The notes: a model not told the origin generated them from the sequence alone. A stretch of 19,879 nucleotides of DNA from Dubosiella newyorkensis (GCF_001945605.1 NZ_MPKA01000088.1:1-19879), one strand, 5' to 3'; shown: positions 2,069 to 8,006, counted from the first letter of the stretch. Program-made: numbers and translations.

Positions 2069-2090
2069 TACCAAAAACGCAAAAAAAAGA

Positions 2091-2204
2091 ATTAGCAACG
2101 TCCTATTCTCGCAGGCGCAAGGCCAACTACCTTCGGCGATGAAGTGCTTGACTTCTGTGTTCGGGACGGGAACAGGTATTTCCACTTCTCTATCGTCACT
2201 AAAT
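2091..2204 (-). rRNA. rrf: 5S ribosomal RNA (isolated copy, no adjacent 23S)
   Basis: The reverse complement reads TTAGTGACGATAGAGAAGTGGAAATACCTGTTCCCGTCCCGAACACAGAAGTCAAGCACTTCATCGCCGAAGGTAGTTGGCCTTGCGCCTGCGAGAATAGGACGTTGCTAAT. It is colinear with Bacillus-type 5S (CCGAACAC.GAAGT.AAGC, GCCGA.GGTAGT, GAGA.TAGGAC). Helix I ends are complementary. The ends are accurate to +/- 2 nt. Confidence 0.9.
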
Positions 2205-2570
2205 CTTTTTACTTGATTATGATATCGGATCTTCCACTAAAAAGCAAGCCTTAATTTCAAATTTTTTGAATCGCGCCATCGATCGGAACGATCTATGGAA
2301 AGCGAGCTGATGAATATGTAAAAAATGGACGAAGAAAACGCCCATTTCAAAGTTCAAAGTGAAGAAATCATTCGCTTTTACTCTTTTCCAGAATTTGTGC
2401 CGTTTGTTTCAACTTCTTTGGTCCAGCAATCATCGAATTGTTGATGCAAAAGACAATATTTTGGGAGGATGATCCCGAATCCAATAGCGAAAATGCAGGT
2501 TAATATTTTTATTTTTTTTCTCACATGAATCGCCTTTCTATTTTTTGATTGATTATAGTATTATATTTTT

Positions 2571-3851
2571 ATGGAAAATATGATTTTGAAGTTTAACTTT
2601 GATAATTTTTACGGTTTATATACGAAGCAGCTCCGTAAATTCTATGAGATCAAGCAAATCGAGATGGCCAATGCTCTTCATGTTTCTAGAAGCGCTTTAA
2701 GCAAAATGGAGTCGAATTCTCAGGAAATGGACGCTGCTCTTTTTGATTCGGTTTTAAGTTTTATTAAAACGATTGATTCGAATTTTGTGTTCTTGAAAGA
2801 TCCGTCAATCTTAAAAGAATATGATAAATGGGTCCGTGATTGCGCTTATCATTTCGTTCATTTAACGGCGGAAAATATTCTTGGTCCTCTAAAAGAATTT
2901 GTAGAACGTACGAATCCGCATAGCTTTGCGTTTTTTCATCATCAACTTCTTGCCGTTTATGTTGCAAAATTTGAAAATCGAAAATGCGAGGAGGAAGTGA
3001 CTCAGTTATATGAGGGCAATTTTTTTGAAGATCCTTTTTATCAAGCTGTATTAAATGATTTTATGGGAATGCGACCTTCTCTTTCTGATGGAAGATCTTT
3101 AGATGAAGCCATTCAATATTTGCGGTCCGCTCAGAATTATTGTTCAATGGCCTTTGATCCAGGTTTATCTGGATTGATCCTCTATCATCAAATTTATCGC
3201 TTCGTGAATGGGAGCCGGACTATAGAGGCTTATGAAATCATTGAAAGGTGCGAAAATGCTTTACAAAGAGCAGGAGCTTACCGCCGAATGCTTTATGTGG
3301 CGCTCAACAAAGGAATCCTGTTTATTCAAATGCATCTTTATCCAAAAGCAATCGCGACTTTTGAAGAACTTCTTCGTTCCAGTCAGCAAATTAATGAACC
3401 TGATTTTATCCAAACGATCTATGATAATTTAGCTTGGTGCTGTTTTCTTCAGGATCAAGATGAGAAAGCGCTTCGATATGCTCGGCTCGCACGGAAAGCG
3501 GGAAGCCGATTCCCAGATATTTATATCGTTTTAGCGTTTAGCTCTTATCGCCTGAAAAGGCAGAGCGATTGTCTTGGATTTATTTCTATGTATTTAAAAA
3601 AGACACAAGGTAGTCCCCGAGAAAAATTTATTGCTTCCTTTCTTCAATTGCTTCGATTTCATTTAACTGGGAATAGTCGTTTTGATAAAAAACAACATCA
3701 GATCGAGCAGCAACTTCAAAATTTTAAAAGTGTTCAATTGGAAATTCCATTTTATACGCTTCTTATTCAACACTATTCAGAACAAGGTCGATCGGATTGT
3801 GTTATCGCTTATCAGGCAAAACTGATTCATTATTTGAAATTTGATTTTTGA
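2571..3851 (+). CDS. Transcriptional regulator, N-terminal XRE-type HTH plus C-terminal TPR-like helical repeats (RNPP/NprR/PlcR-like architecture)
   Basis: 426-aa ORF. The HTH is IKQIEMANALHVSRSALSKMESN. A long all-helical C-terminal region contains TPR-like segments such as IYDNLAWCCFLQDQDEKALRYARLARKAG. No SD is seen upstream of ATG 2571, and ATG 2580 is an alternative start. Confidence 0.75.
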   Translation: MENMILKFNFDNFYGLYTKQLRKFYEIKQIEMANALHVSRSALSKMESNSQEMDAALFDSVLSFIKTIDSNFVFLKDPSILKEYDKWVRDCAYHFVHLTAENILGPLKEFVERTNPHSFAFFHHQLLAVYVAKFENRKCEEEVTQLYEGNFFEDPFYQAVLNDFMGMRPSLSDGRSLDEAIQYLRSAQNYCSMAFDPGLSGLILYHQIYRFVNGSRTIEAYEIIERCENALQRAGAYRRMLYVALNKGILFIQMHLYPKAIATFEELLRSSQQINEPDFIQTIYDNLAWCCFLQDQDEKALRYARLARKAGSRFPDIYIVLAFSSYRLKRQSDCLGFISMYLKKTQGSPREKFIASFLQLLRFHLTGNSRFDKKQHQIEQQLQNFKSVQLEIPFYTLLIQHYSEQGRSDCVIAYQAKLIHYLKFDF

Positions 3852-5481
3852 TCGGGTGAAGGGAATTCTTTCTTTTTTGTAAATATTCTAAGGAGGATAG
3901 AACGTTTACTCCTTGTTTTGTGAATTCGATAACTTCGTCGAAAAGCATGATATTTTCATCGAAAAGTTTATGTGAAATTGAAATGATCGATCCTTTATAA
4001 TTTTTCAAAATATCATATTCGATCTGTTTGGCGTTTTCTTCATCCAATGCTGAAAATGCTTCGTCCAAAAATAGCCAGTCTTTTATATTGTATAAACCTC
4101 TAGCAAGGGATATCCGCTGTAATTCGCCTCCGCTAATTTCCAAACTGTCTTCTTGAACAGATTCGTGAAGACGAGATTTTAAACTATTTAAATGGACTTG
4201 ATCGAGTACTCGATTCAGCTTGTTGGAATCGGCTGTCTGCCACAATGTAATGTTTTCTTCCAATGTCCCTGGAAGCAGGTCTGGAGATTGGCGCAAATAT
4301 GTCAATTGCTTCGCTATCGAAGAATGCTCGAGAGCGTTCGTAGGGATATTATTGGCATAAATATGGGGATGAGGGATCGTTCCGCTCAATAATCCAAGCA
4401 ATGTACTTTTTCCACAGCCGCTTTCTCCAACAACCAAATATTTTTTTCCTTTTTGAAGCTGTAAGGTAAAGTGATCAAATATCGTCTTTTCTTTTCGTTT
4501 GAATACAAGATCTTTTAGTAAAAAAGATTGAATTGGTTCGTTTAAAAGTTTCTTTTGATGTTTTCTTTTTTGAACTTCTTTCAAGTATCCGTCGACAACG
4601 ACGCTTGAGGATTGAACGTTATTATACATTTCCATATACCAGCCAATCGGATTGATGACCATATTGCTTGCTTGAATAATGGTCATAAAAACGCTCAAAG
4701 AAATGAGGTTCTGATTGATCATGTAAAATCCGATCAAAGATTCTCCAAAGAAAATAATATTAACGCCTAAATCATTGATAGCCAATACCCATTGCTTTAA
4801 CCATTCACTATGAATCGTTACTTTGCTTAGTAATTTATTTTGGTTTTGTAGACGAGAAGAATATTTTGTGTCTAAGTCATAATCTTTGATTGTCAAAAAA
4901 TTGGTGCAAAAACCTTTTAATACGCCAATCCACTGCTTTTGATGACTCAACACTTCTTTTTGATTGGATTCTAGTCGTGTCTTGAATGTCCGATTAAATA
5001 AGGATAAAGATAAAGCGCATATATAAATGAACAAAAGGAGGATCCAGCTATTCGTTCCGATATATAAACTCCCGATCAAAAATAGAAATCCATACCGATA
5101 AATATTTAATTTCGAGGTCACATACTGATCGATAATTGTATTGATTTCATTCGTTTGTTTATTGATCCGGGCGCTAGTATCCGTTTTTTGAAATTCATCA
5201 GGTGATAAAGCGAGCCAGGATTCATACAAATCTTGGCTTAGTCTTTCCCGTAACGAATATTTAAAGTAAACCATGAGTCCTTTCATGATCGTTTCAACGA
5301 AAAACATGAGAATCACAAAGGCAACGATCCATTTGACCATTTGGCTTAATGTGTTTTTGTTTTCTAATGTGTTGAAAAAACGACCAAAAAGAATCGACTT
5401 GAAAAGATCGAGCATGGAAAAAGCGAGGATCGAAGCGATAGTCAAATAATAAAGAGCTTTATTTTTTATAAGTTTATGCAT
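3802..5481 (-). CDS. ABC exporter, fused transmembrane domain + ATPase (half-transporter), no N-terminal C39 peptidase domain
   Basis: 559 aa. The hydrophobic N-terminal half begins directly with a TM segment. Walker A is GESGCGKST, the signature is ISGGELQRISLAR, Walker B is WLFLDEAFSALD, and the H-loop is SISHK. The start ATG (5481) overlaps the upstream gene's stop by 8 nt. Confidence 0.85.
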   Translation of the reverse strand: MHKLIKNKALYYLTIASILAFSMLDLFKSILFGRFFNTLENKNTLSQMVKWIVAFVILMFFVETIMKGLMVYFKYSLRERLSQDLYESWLALSPDEFQKTDTSARINKQTNEINTIIDQYVTSKLNIYRYGFLFLIGSLYIGTNSWILLLFIYICALSLSLFNRTFKTRLESNQKEVLSHQKQWIGVLKGFCTNFLTIKDYDLDTKYSSRLQNQNKLLSKVTIHSEWLKQWVLAINDLGVNIIFFGESLIGFYMINQNLISLSVFMTIIQASNMVINPIGWYMEMYNNVQSSSVVVDGYLKEVQKRKHQKKLLNEPIQSFLLKDLVFKRKEKTIFDHFTLQLQKGKKYLVVGESGCGKSTLLGLLSGTIPHPHIYANNIPTNALEHSSIAKQLTYLRQSPDLLPGTLEENITLWQTADSNKLNRVLDQVHLNSLKSRLHESVQEDSLEISGGELQRISLARGLYNIKDWLFLDEAFSALDEENAKQIEYDILKNYKGSIISISHKLFDENIMLFDEVIEFTKQGVNVLSSLEYLQKRKNSLHPIKNQISNNESVLPDKR

Positions 5482-6724
5482 ATCGATATCCGCCAGCTAC
5501 ACATTTTACAAGGTTTTCATATTGTCCGGATACGATGAGTTCGCCCAATTTATCAAATATTCTCAACGCATTTTCTTTTTTATATTCACAATCGGAAAAA
5601 TTGATTTCGTTGTTGATGGCAAGACATTTATGACATTGCCAATTTAAAAAACAATTTCTGCATTTATAGTTATCTTTTGCTAAATAGGCGGATAAGTTGT
5701 TCACTTTATTTGTAAATTGTTCCTCATTAAAGTTAGAAATATCTCCCAATAAGTAAGCATCTCCTTTTTTTATAAACTGCTGACAAGGATATATTTTTCC
5801 ATCAGAGTCGATGGTTATTAGTTGAGTCCCTGCAGCACAAAAAAAATCTTTTCTTTTGCCAATCATAAAATCTCTTAAAAAGCCTTCAGTCCACCGGAAT
5901 TCACCTAATTTATTATTAAGAATTTGCTGAATTTCATTTTCAATATTTCTGGATTCTTCATGCGGTTGATTTTCAATTAAATCAGCTACTAAAATATACG
6001 TATTCGGATATATTTCTTTAAGTATATCTTTCACTTCATTTTTGGAGAGTGTTGACTTTCCGTCATATGTTGCTTCAATAGAAGATATATATGATTGGAT
6101 TGGCAAAGTTTTTTCTAATATTTTTTCAAATGTGCCATTTCCGTTTACGTCAATTCTATTTCGATCATTATCCTTTTTGTTTCCATCAATTGAAAGTGTT
6201 AACTCAATTTCAAATTTTTTTAATAGCTTTATAAATTCAGCGTTTATCAACGTTCCATTTGTTTGACAAAGAAACTTAACGTTAGGATTAATTTCTCTTG
6301 CTTTTTCGCATATCATTTTTATTCCTGATATATTTAATAAGGGTTCTCCTCCAAAAAAACAAATGTATTCCAATTCTTTGTGATTGTGAATAAACTTAAT
6401 TATTTGTTTAATGGTTTGTTCACTCATAATTTTTTTTGGCTTATTATATGTTCCTGCATTGGCATAGCAATATTTACATTTTAGGTTGCACATATTGGCC
6501 ATATTAATCTTTATGATTTTGACTGAAATATTTTTTGTTTTGGCATAAGTTGAATTATTAGTTAATAAATCATAAAATTTTGAATCTTGCTCTTTTTTGT
6601 GTCCTGAATATAGATTTAAAAAATCGTTTAAATATTCTTTGTTTAATTGAAAGGTTTTTAAAGTGTTTGTATCAAATAAAATCTGGGCTTCTGTTAAAAC
6701 TAAGTTTTTATAAACTTTTGCCAT
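5474..6724 (-). CDS. Radical SAM enzyme with C-terminal SPASM domain (peptide-modifying maturase)
   Basis: 416 aa. C79-x3-C83-x2-C86 (CNLKCKYC) and GGEPLL are present. The C-terminus carries CAAGTQLITIDSDGKIYPC (CX12GX4C), CRNCFLNWQCHKC (CX2CX5CX2C) and a later SDCEY, giving a 7-Cys SPASM pattern. The SD GGAGG lies 9 nt upstream of the ATG. Confidence 0.85.
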   Translation of the reverse strand: MAKVYKNLVLTEAQILFDTNTLKTFQLNKEYLNDFLNLYSGHKKEQDSKFYDLLTNNSTYAKTKNISVKIIKINMANMCNLKCKYCYANAGTYNKPKKIMSEQTIKQIIKFIHNHKELEYICFFGGEPLLNISGIKMICEKAREINPNVKFLCQTNGTLINAEFIKLLKKFEIELTLSIDGNKKDNDRNRIDVNGNGTFEKILEKTLPIQSYISSIEATYDGKSTLSKNEVKDILKEIYPNTYILVADLIENQPHEESRNIENEIQQILNNKLGEFRWTEGFLRDFMIGKRKDFFCAAGTQLITIDSDGKIYPCQQFIKKGDAYLLGDISNFNEEQFTNKVNNLSAYLAKDNYKCRNCFLNWQCHKCLAINNEINFSDCEYKKENALRIFDKLGELIVSGQYENLVKCVAGGYRYA

Positions 6725-6748
6725 AATTTTTATCCTCCTGATTTGTAT

Positions 6749-6786
6749 GTAATCAAAAGTGTCGAAAATTCGACACTTTTGATTAC
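6749..6786 (-). promoter_or_regulatory. Intercistronic perfect hairpin between precursor gene and radical SAM gene
   Basis: GTAATCAAAAGTGTCG (6749-6764) / AAAATT / CGACACTTTTGATTAC (6771-6786) forms 16 perfect bp. On the mRNA the 5' arm starts in the last codon and stop codon of the precursor ORF. No U-tract follows (AUACAAAUCAGGAGG). Confidence 0.7.
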
Positions 6787-6866
6787 ATGTTAATGTCTCC
6801 GCAACCTATACCACCACCACAACGGCAAGGGGCTTGTAAAATTTTAACTAGCTTTAATTCAAACAT
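6783..6866 (-). CDS. Candidate RiPP precursor peptide, 27 aa: MFELKLVKILQAPCRCGGGIGCGDINM
   Basis: Hand translation of the reverse complement. ATG (6866-6864) is preceded by AAAGGAGA plus an 8-nt spacer. An in-frame TAA lies upstream with no alternative start. The stop is TAA (6785-6783). The gene sits first in the operon, directly upstream of the rSAM/SPASM gene. It is too short for the ORF track. Confidence 0.7.
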   Translation of the reverse strand: MFELKLVKILQAPCRCGGGIGCGDINM

Positions 6867-6891
6867 TATTTTTTCTCCTTTCTGCTTAGAT

Positions 6892-6905
6892 ACTTTTGCA
6901 AAAGT
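6892..6905. promoter_or_regulatory. Perfect 14-bp palindrome ACTTTTGCAAAAGT in the predicted 5' UTR of the precursor operon
   Basis: Read directly from the sequence. It lies between the predicted -10 (6926-6931) and the SD (about 6875-6881). It could be an operator or a small RNA hairpin. Confidence 0.3.
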
Positions 6906-6925
6906 TCTTTATTTAAAGCAATTTT

Positions 6926-6954
6926 ATATTAGAAAATAAATAAAATTCTAACAA
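6926..6954 (-). promoter_or_regulatory. Candidate sigma-A promoter of the precursor-rSAM-ABC operon (TTGTTA-17 nt-TAATAT)
   Basis: Minus strand reads TTGTTA (6954-6949), a 17-nt spacer, then TAATAT (6931-6926). It is about 60 nt upstream of the precursor ATG. Confidence 0.55.
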
Positions 6955-6960
6955 TGGTTT

Positions 6961-6972
6961 ATGTTCGAACAT
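6961..6972. promoter_or_regulatory. Perfect 12-bp palindrome ATGTTCGAACAT, 6 nt upstream of the -35; candidate activator (HTH regulator) box
   Basis: Read directly from the sequence. The position is analogous to PlcR/Rgg-type boxes just upstream of or overlapping the -35. No second copy was noticed in the window. Confidence 0.35.
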
Positions 6973-7088
6973 TATAGGATTAATTATGAGAATGAAATAA
7001 ACAATTTTATGTTTCTTACACGATTGTTCGCTCAATTGACTTGACGTATATGATACGATAGTTGCGATTTAGGATGGGAGGTGTTCTT

Positions 7089-8006
7089 TTGAACAACAAT
7101 AAAGTCTACTCTGGACTCGTATACCTTCCTAAAAGAAGGGCGAGCGAAAAAATCATAGATGGCTGTCTCGTGTTAGAGGGCGGGGCGTTTCGAGGCTTGT
7201 ACACGGCTGGTGTTCTGGACGCGTTGATGGAGGCGGGATTGAACTTTCAGACGACGATCGGAACTTCGGCTGGAGCGATGAATGGAATGAATTATGTTTC
7301 TGGGCAAATTGGACGATCCGCCCGATTGAATCTTGAATATCGGCACGATCCAAGATATGTGGGATCCAAAGCTTTGTTGCAGGAAGGCGGTGTTGTTGGA
7401 TTCAATTTCGCTTTCACGGATTTTAATGAAGAAGACCCGTTTGATGAAGAGCGGTTCATAGATCCTTCTAGACGGTTTGTGGCGGTGGCGACCAATATTG
7501 AAACAGGACAAGCGGAATTTTTAGAAAAAGGAGAGGTCGAAGATATTTATAAGGCGGTCCAAGCTTCGGCTTCGATGCCTGTTTTTTCAAGAGCGGTCCA
7601 AATTGGAGAGCACTCGTATCTGGATGGGGGCTGCGCCAATAAGATCCCGTTTCAGTGGGCGATCGATCAAGGCTTTGAGCATGTTGTCGTGATCAAGACG
7701 AATCCCGACTTTTTTAGAAAGCCGCCAATGAGCGATAAAGAAAAGAAGGCGTTTCATACGGTGTTCTATAATCATCCTGAATTTTGCGAATCGTATGCGC
7801 GAAGCAACGAAGCCTACAATGAGCAATGCGATGAGATCGCTAGGCTGCATCGTCGCAAACGCTTGTTTTCGATCGCGCCAAGCGAGCATATCGAAGTCTC
7901 TCGTTTGGAAAAAGATATCGAAAAGCTTGGAAAGCTCTATTATTTAGGCTATCACGATGGACGAAAAGCCATTCCTGCTCTCAAAGAGTATTTAGGAATC
8001 GAATAA
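7089..8006 (+). CDS. Patatin-like phospholipase family protein
   Basis: Oxyanion motif GGAFRG, nucleophile GTSAGA (GxSxG) and the catalytic Asp in YLDGG are present. The start is placed at TTG 7089 because GGAGG (7077-7081) lies 7 nt upstream. ATG 7074 and TTG 7062 (the track start) are alternatives without an SD. Confidence 0.8.
   Translation: MNNNKVYSGLVYLPKRRASEKIIDGCLVLEGGAFRGLYTAGVLDALMEAGLNFQTTIGTSAGAMNGMNYVSGQIGRSARLNLEYRHDPRYVGSKALLQEGGVVGFNFAFTDFNEEDPFDEERFIDPSRRFVAVATNIETGQAEFLEKGEVEDIYKAVQASASMPVFSRAVQIGEHSYLDGGCANKIPFQWAIDQGFEHVVVIKTNPDFFRKPPMSDKEKKAFHTVFYNHPEFCESYARSNEAYNEQCDEIARLHRRKRLFSIAPSEHIEVSRLEKDIEKLGKLYYLGYHDGRKAIPALKEYLGIE

Follow-up and report, generated by a model that had tools for sequence, protein, structure and literature searches.

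The 19,879-nucleotide stretch of Dubosiella newyorkensis DNA analysed here (GCF_001945605.1, NZ_MPKA01000088.1:1-19879; hereafter the window) carries, directly 5' of a gene for a radical S-adenosylmethionine (SAM)/SPASM enzyme, a very short open reading frame (ORF) that is very probably a genuine precursor gene. As judged from its sequence, this ORF is real, conserved and previously unannotated, and it founds a small family in gut Erysipelotrichaceae. The product is probably the precursor of an uncharacterised sactipeptide- or ranthipeptide-like family, modified by the radical SAM (rSAM) enzyme to carry two small thioether rings. The operon is ordered as precursor, conserved hairpin, rSAM/SPASM enzyme and ATP-binding cassette (ABC) exporter, and its first elements are as follows.

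6783..6866, minus strand: precursor peptide gene, 27 aa plus stop; putative leader at approximately residues 1-13/15, core CGGGIGCGDINM, invariant Cys16 and Cys22
6875..6879, minus strand: Shine-Dalgarno sequence AGGAG, read from the sequence, 8 nt 5' of the ATG at 6866

Translation of 6783..6866 gives MFELKLVKILQAPCRCGGGIGCGDINM and then a stop, in agreement with the original prediction, which had described here a 27-aa ORF that has Cys14, Cys16 and Cys22, is free of Ser and Thr, and contains five Gly; these lie at residues 17, 18, 19, 21 and 23. The peptide also falls, as had been proposed, in the size class (25-33 aa) of streptide-like precursors of rSAM-modified peptides that are ribosomally synthesised and then modified after translation (RaS-RiPPs). 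In order to assess its conservation, the DNA around homologs of the enzyme was fetched and the region 5' of each enzyme gene inspected. In each of the 11 distinct related loci (enzymes 39-79% identical) the enzyme gene is directly preceded by a co-oriented ORF of 25-27 aa, with an AGGAG/GGAGG-type ribosome-binding site (RBS) at the same position in most of the orthologous loci. This arrangement bears out the assignment as a leader-plus-core precursor for the adjacent enzyme. Conservation of the ORF and of its Cys pattern in syntenic loci had been named beforehand as the check by which the proposal could fail, and the ORF was found to be retained. The orthologous peptides, with the identity of each neighbouring enzyme to that of the window, are listed below.

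L001-L003, enzyme 79% identical: MTELKLVKILQIPRGCFGGIGCGDMKI
L006/L007, enzyme 43% identical: MTEITYNCVSDVMPLCGGFGCGDVKI
L004/L005, enzyme 43% identical: MKELKFEFQSNVALSCGGHSCGSLIC
L008 (Breznakia pachnodae), enzyme 45% identical: MKELSFDINLNVAVACGGMACGNVIC
L167, enzyme 42% identical: MTEINYDVSVDVTVACGGIICGNRT
L173, enzyme 40% identical: MTEITYDVSVDVAVACGGIVCGDRT
L168-L170, enzyme 41% identical: MKEIAFDVKFDVSVACGGLLCGNMIC
L171, enzyme 39% identical: MKEIVFDVKFDVSVACGGFVCGNMIC
L174, enzyme 39% identical: MTEILIEFSTECEIPCGGIGCGDLIC
L175, enzyme 41% identical: MKEMVFDVKFDVAVACGGLSCGNVIC
Finegoldia magna, enzyme 33-35% identical, two tandem precursor copies: MKTLDLRVVELRDFCLGFGCGVKPQ and MKRIDLGGAQLRTFCLGFVCGVKQ

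In the precursor alignment (window numbering) M1, E3, C16, G18, G19, C22 and G23 are invariant, and with the Finegoldia copies included the shared skeleton is an M-x-E leader followed by C-x-G-x(2-3)-C-G-x(4-5)-stop. The three-Cys pattern noticed earlier therefore holds in part: Cys16 and Cys22 are found in every peptide, whereas in place of Cys14 the nearest ortholog has Arg, and the other peptides lack this Cys. The window peptide is likewise alone in having a GGG run (FGG in the nearest ortholog, GG or LG elsewhere) and a composition free of Ser and Thr. Cys16 and Cys22 are 6 apart in the window peptide, the Cys spacing being 5 in most family members, and a C-terminal Cys, present in 6 of 11 peptides, is lacking in that of the window. 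Among the residues that had been suggested as acceptors, position 24 is indeed constrained, with Asp in five of the 11 close peptides, Asn in five and Ser in one (L004), and Val in Finegoldia; Asn26, Ile and Met, which had been listed beside it, are not conserved in the family.

The substitution pattern also bears on whether the frame is read. Between the window and L003, its closest ortholog, seven codons are identical, 12 differ synonymously and eight non-synonymously, and this excess of synonymous change indicates a translated, selected frame; between L168 and L175 the corresponding counts are 11, 10 and 5. A six-frame search of the window and 171 loci with the core motif as a regular expression matched only ORFs directly 5' of rSAM genes. 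That the ORF arose by chance, or is decaying beside an orphan rSAM enzyme, and is not a functional gene is thus very improbable. The absence of the family peptides as called proteins (0 of the nine looked up are present in a collection of approximately 15 billion sequences) would suit such an explanation, but ORFs no longer than 30 aa can be expected to go unannotated; against it stand the synonymous excess and a position, RBS, length and motif that are kept in loci whose enzymes are as little as 33% identical. Within the region 6650-7120 no other ORF has comparable support. An antisense ORF of 50 aa (6787..6939, plus strand) was rejected, as it mirrors the conserved precursor and no RBS was seen for it. 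An NCBIfam scan of eight family peptides (E up to 10) returned no meaningful family match, and a search of the literature on rSAM peptides of Dubosiella or Erysipelotrichaceae found nothing relevant.

More distant rSAM loci (28-29% identity) contain related but distinct Cys/Gly-rich precursors (L017, 1029..1133; L088, 348..908). At distant loci of this kind, MEIVFEDVTIEEIISEFDTCDGPIGGCGIGCSNY is the precursor in an Erysipelotrichaceae metagenome-assembled genome, and three tandem peptides occur on one metagenome contig, two of them with the ends CGGLLCGF and CGGAVCGIWC. The C-G-G-x-x-C-G element may be a module common beyond the close family. Next to a 36%-identical rSAM enzyme in locus L176, the 5' ORF (2327..2476) encodes 49 aa, is free of Cys and ends in ...KGEYDY, with no Cys-containing ORF upstream; an aminotransferase gene follows the rSAM gene there in place of the ABC exporter.

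The enzyme gene that follows the precursor is clear as to its class.

5474..6724, minus strand: radical SAM/SPASM peptide maturase, 416 aa, with Pfam Radical_SAM, Fer4_12 and SPASM

The CX3CX2C motif (C79, C83 and C86) and the seven SPASM Cys (C296-X12-G-X4-C314 ... C355-X2-C358-X5-C364-X2-C367 ... C379) are invariant across 14 homologs. Together with a short, adjacent and co-oriented precursor conserved with the maturase, these are the generic features of a RaS-RiPP operon. In no curated NCBIfam family does the enzyme reach the cut-off, as the following matches show.

PapB ranthipeptide maturase (NF047865): 183 (183.1) bits, cut-off 340; best match
nif11-like peptide maturase: 144 bits, cut-off 519; second-best match, with a name that states no chemistry
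SCIFF maturase (TIGR03974): 132 (132.1) bits, cut-off 425
QhpD: 119 bits, cut-off 453
CcpM: 114 bits, cut-off 500
GggB (NF050038): 75 (75.1) bits, cut-off 650

Several of these closest families (PapB, SCIFF maturase, QhpD and CcpM) are named as Cys-thioether or Cys-rich-peptide maturases. The relatives of the enzyme within the family give the same picture, PapB being the best match for every member tested (151-178 bits) and GggB scoring 58-85 bits. The nearest solved structure is CteB (5wgg), at 104 bits by sequence and with a Foldseek E of 3e-18 and TMq of 0.62, and EpeE-type epimerases and anSME are also among the fold neighbours. In the AlphaFold2 model (mean predicted local distance difference test score, pLDDT, of 84), residues 1-55 form a mostly beta N-terminal domain with pLDDT above 90; by analogy with the leader-binding domains of RiPP maturases, this domain may be the docking site of the leader.

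An exhaustive search of 1.84 billion cluster representatives gave 25,224 matches, 100 clusters with E <= 1e-30 and only two 50%-identity clusters above 300 bits; the few high-scoring clusters indicate that the enzyme family is small and lies within a continuum of SPASM peptide maturases. The enzyme shows 100% identity to a protein of D. newyorkensis. With six exact octapeptides of the enzyme no relative was found in a collection of one representative genome per species, and a genome-collection scan with the enzyme alignment returned Breznakia pachnodae as the sole close match, all others being at most 31% identical. For a metagenome collection the back-translated patterns were generic, so that the scan picked up distant rSAM enzymes only.

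Across the cores of the family peptides only Cys and Gly are invariant, with no conserved aromatic residue, Lys or Thr, and several of the nearest curated relatives of the enzyme make Cys thioethers. For these two reasons it is proposed, on sequence grounds, that two thioether cross-links are donated by Cys16 and Cys22, a proposal that is reasonably likely provided that the gene is real. Other chemistries fit less well. Lanthionine formation had been excluded in the original prediction, and that exclusion stands: no lanthipeptide synthetase is encoded in the cluster, the window peptide has no Ser or Thr, and no Ser or Thr is conserved in the family. Cyclophane and Lys-Trp chemistries were rejected because the core has no conserved aromatic or other side chain besides Cys and Gly. 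It is rather unlikely that the enzyme instead epimerises residues, oxidises Cys, acts at the C-terminus or makes some other radical modification, with the two Cys merely forming a disulfide or binding a metal. Such an explanation would accommodate the lack of any curated match above cut-off, the EpeE-type epimerases and anSME among the fold neighbours, and the very different substrates on which rSAM/SPASM enzymes act at 30-36% identity, as in L176; it does not account for a core in which the only invariant residues are Cys and Gly, nor for the thioethers formed by several of the nearest curated families, and a disulfide would need no dedicated rSAM enzyme conserved with the peptide in every locus.

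The proposed family falls outside the GGG/streptosactin, PapB and SCIFF groups, as the defining features of each were looked for and are not found. PapB, which makes freyrasin in Paenibacillus, is the best curated match and shares the rSAM plus SPASM architecture; in both systems an Asp lies a short way downstream of a Cys donor. It is conceivable, though unlikely, that the window encodes a strict PapB-type ranthipeptide, in which the sole functionally important link would run from the sulfur of Cys22 to the beta carbon of Asp24 (Asn or Ser in the variants), with Cys16 structural or engaged in a second beta- or gamma-link. Consistent with this, PapB is the best match for every family member tested (151-183 bits), 10 of 11 close relatives have Asp or Asn at position 24, Cys-Xn-Asp with n = 0-6 is tolerated by PapB (PMC9413430), and a beta-thioether to Asn has a precedent in NxxcB, as cited in PMC9389541. 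On the other hand, the enzyme reaches only about half of the family cut-off (183 versus 340 bits), and the repeated Cys-X3-Asp/Glu motif of PapB-family precursors (PMC9413430) is absent, six C-X3-D repeats in freyrasin being set against a single C-G-D in the much shorter window-family precursors (25-27 aa). The Asp of that C-G-D is moreover replaced by Asn, Ser (L004) or Val (Finegoldia) in relatives; Cys16 is no less invariant than Cys22, and after it the sole invariant residue is Gly, which has no beta carbon. In sequence, GggB and QmpB look like ranthisynthases as well, although they are sactisynthases (PMC10288494).

The original prediction had tentatively suggested a link with the streptococcal GGG subfamily, represented by streptosactin (GggA/GggB/GggC of Streptococcus thermophilus), in which case a GggB-type sactisynthase, Cys(i)-to-(i+3) C-alpha links and shp/rgg control would be expected. 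There are likenesses to that system: a small RaS-RiPP operon of precursor, rSAM/SPASM enzyme and transporter with a link to quorum sensing (putative in the window), a GGG run in the window peptide, a Gly-rich core, two Cys donors 6 apart as in GggA (Cys25 and Cys31), Gly as a precedented C-alpha acceptor (PMC8172795), and GggC (NF050039) as the best NCBIfam match of the exporter. Membership is nevertheless refuted by the model scores, with 75 bits versus 650 for GggB and 134 (133.9) versus 750 for GggC. Neither GGG nor CxC is conserved, most relatives have a Cys spacing of 5, the cluster has no shp/rgg, the regulator is a 426-aa HTH_3 plus TPR protein with no Rgg match, and the host is an Erysipelotrichaceae species. 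GggC also removes the leader (PMC8172795), whereas the window transporter has no peptidase domain. The suggested link cannot be upheld, and affiliation with that subfamily is scarcely credible.

CteB, which matures SCIFF peptides in Clostridia, has the closest solved structure; it is one of the SPASM maturases that form thioethers, and its N-terminal domain binds peptide. SCIFF precursors differ, however, in having approximately 45 aa and six Cys, as seen in the true SCIFF peptides that stand beside more distant enzymes (L087, L089 and L090), compared with 27 aa and two conserved Cys in the window precursor; the N-terminal domain of the window enzyme is shorter (approximately 55 aa) and mostly beta, and the SCIFF maturase model gives 132 bits versus 425. 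The QmpB/suisactin system is alike by analogy only, in that its two very small sactionine rings with one-residue spacing (PMC13361665) resemble the C-x-G and C-G-x spacing seen here. The same source, a 2026 review, describes uncharacterised streptococcal 'CGG' (S. orisratti) and 'CGx' RaS-RiPP subfamilies, which are named after precursor motifs and have a regulator and no identified shp; the first name matches the C-G-G of the Dubosiella family, a comparison made by description only, and the 120 best homologs of the enzyme include no named streptococcal protein.

Several observations weigh against the proposal of a two-thioether peptide. As no curated cut-off is reached, the chemistry is not transferable by homology, and the Cys-free ORF of L176 indicates that the substrate class can switch at such a distance between enzymes. 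As Finegoldia has Val24, a carboxylate or amide acceptor is not universal. Whether the links are of the sacti or ranthi type is not decidable by overall similarity, because the sactisynthases GggB and QmpB resemble ranthisynthases and the two groups are not separable in this way (PMC10288494). No protease or immunity gene lies within the cluster, and the DNA upstream of the precursor ORF gave no call for a sigma-70 consensus promoter; the absence of that consensus would fit an activator-dependent promoter, though it is not evidence for one.

Between and upstream of the two genes there are elements that may set their expression.

6747..6788, minus strand: perfect 19-bp stem-loop, beginning in the last codon and the stop codon of the precursor
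6892..6905: perfect 14-bp palindrome ACTTTTGCAAAAGT, 26 nt 5' of the ATG; candidate second operator or element of the 5' untranslated region
6961..6972: perfect 12-bp palindrome ATGTTCGAACAT, overlapping TATAAT (6976..6971) and unique in the window; candidate operator

As RNA the stem-loop folds at -26.9 kcal/mol, with a z of -9.7, and none of 200 shuffled sequences did as well. Its core at 6755..6780 (AAAAGTGTCGAATTTTCGACACTTTT) is 100% identical in L003, the loci being approximately 80% identical overall, and an AGGAGG RBS lies between the stem-loop and the rSAM gene. A stem-loop, usually with a T-tract, occupies the gap between precursor and enzyme genes in most related loci, with L172 as the clearest exception. 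It is probably a leaky terminator or stabiliser that sets the ratio of precursor to enzyme. In RiPP operons this is a familiar arrangement that yields more precursor than enzyme. The 12-bp palindrome is part of a block, AATGTTCGAACATAAA, which L003 retains in full although the flanks have diverged; the 14-bp palindrome is unique in the window, was matched in 0 of 200 shuffles and has one mismatch in L003. An Rfam scan of the whole window gave no match in the precursor region and only a 5S rRNA elsewhere.

The remaining genes of the cluster are an exporter, a regulator and a further small ORF.

3802..5481, minus strand: ABC exporter with fused transmembrane and nucleotide-binding domains, 559 aa, Pfam ABC_membrane and ABC_tran only
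2571..3851, plus strand: regulator of RRNPP-like architecture, 426 aa, with TPR_12 and weak HTH_3 matches (HTH_3 plus TPR); convergent with the operon
2378..2524, minus strand: ORF of 48 aa whose N-terminus resembles a signal peptide; diverges from the regulator and is a candidate pro-pheromone

The exporter start overlaps the rSAM stop by 8 nt, no C39 peptidase domain was found in the exporter by the Pfam scan, and the same exporter gene also lies 3' of the rSAM gene in L001-L008, L167-L173 and L175. A gene for an M20-family peptidase stands near the cluster in the metagenomic loci L167 (1..1015) and L173 (1..1005) and independently in Finegoldia magna (L172, 109..1557); this could be a coincidence, or the enzyme could be a candidate leader trimmer. 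The 3' ends of the regulator and exporter genes overlap by 50 nt (3802..3851), with no terminator called between them, and L001-L003 keep the regulator at the same place and in the same layout. In the clade of enzymes with approximately 40% identity an HTH_3(+TPR) regulator is instead upstream of the precursor, directly so in most loci. The Dubosiella-type regulators and those of this clade share their architecture, and no homology between them is detectable by BLASTP, so no conserved regulator family is claimed. The 48-aa ORF (MRKKIKILTCIFAIGFGIILPKYC...GTNSGKE) is conserved in L001 (4487..4633) as MNKKIKLLLLGLLIGAGVIVPKYC...GTNSGKE, with a conserved C-terminal half PKYC...FD[DE]CW.KEV...GTNSGKE, and elsewhere it is annotated only as hypothetical; its product may be a secreted pro-pheromone of the HTH-TPR regulator.

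RRNPP pro-peptides normally lie downstream of their regulator (plcR-papR, nprR-nprX, rap-phr). In the 40%-identity clade the precursor likewise stands downstream of the regulator, in most loci with nothing in between, which lends some substance to a different idea, namely that the product is no antimicrobial but an rSAM-cyclised quorum-sensing pheromone, the cognate signal of the adjacent RRNPP-type regulator. Independently of this, the product may carry a new topology; that either holds is improbable. The new topology in question may be a thioether on an invariant Gly in the smallest core of an rSAM-modified RiPP so far, of approximately 11 residues.

If the peptide does carry two thioethers, the pathway may be pictured as follows. 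An upstream promoter, probably controlled by the HTH-TPR regulator through the conserved palindromes, would give a short and abundant precursor transcript, and the hairpin at 6747..6788 would pass only part of this transcription into the enzyme and exporter genes. The leader of approximately 13-15 residues (M-x-E-[ILM]..., strand-like) would dock on the beta-rich N-terminal domain of the enzyme, which, with its SAM cluster and two auxiliary clusters, would abstract hydrogen from acceptor carbons, so that the thiols of Cys16 and Cys22 become joined to residues a few positions downstream. The product would have two small un-nested rings within C-x-G...C-G-(D/N/S); this topology is suggested by the invariant Gly at the second position beyond the first Cys, the constrained residue at the second position beyond the other Cys and the obligatory tail of 4-5 residues. 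Streptosactin offers a precedent, with un-nested Cys25-Ser28 and Cys31-Gly34 rings formed by C-alpha links (PMC8172795), and QmpB another, with its one-residue-spaced sactionine rings (PMC13361665). The preferred acceptors would be, for Cys16, the invariant Gly two or three residues further on, where the link would necessarily be to C-alpha, and, for Cys22, residue 24 or 25, where a D/N/S acceptor could be attacked at C-alpha or, as with PapB or NxxcB, at C-beta. The translationally coupled ABC transporter would then export the peptide, and removal of the leader, if any, would fall to a protease outside the cluster. A narrow-spectrum antimicrobial or a signal would be a plausible role for the product.

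rSAM-modified Cys peptides are well known as a kind, and a specialist would find nothing unexpected in another; what the Dubosiella locus offers is a tidy, minimal and experimentally tractable system. It adds to the rSAM thioether peptides a precursor family that is very small (25-27 aa) and has two invariant Cys, and such a minimal precursor makes a compact system for studying what decides between attack at the alpha and the beta carbon. As the precursors are invisible to annotation, their rSAM genes look like orphans in databases, and the motif M-x-E...C-x-G-x2-3-C-G-x4-5-stop directly 5' of the enzyme gene permits the family peptides to be annotated. D. newyorkensis is a commensal of the mouse gut that is studied in biomedicine, and the product could affect competition or signalling in the murine microbiota.

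The cluster is flanked by housekeeping genes (alpha-amylase, patatin-like lipase, nitroreductase and the pyr/car operon). Its GC content is 32.9% in the segment 2378..7061, compared with 47.2% in the rest of the window, and 28% in the rSAM gene, which gives the cluster the look of an acquired island; an IS66 transposase fragment adjoins it in L001/L002. The low GC content, this fragment and the absence of a match in the species-representative scan suggest that the island was acquired horizontally and varies between strains. A complete 5S rRNA gene (2090..2203, minus strand; Rfam RF00001, 83 bits) separates the low-GC island from the alpha-amylase gene and stands alone in the window, with no 23S or 16S gene adjacent.

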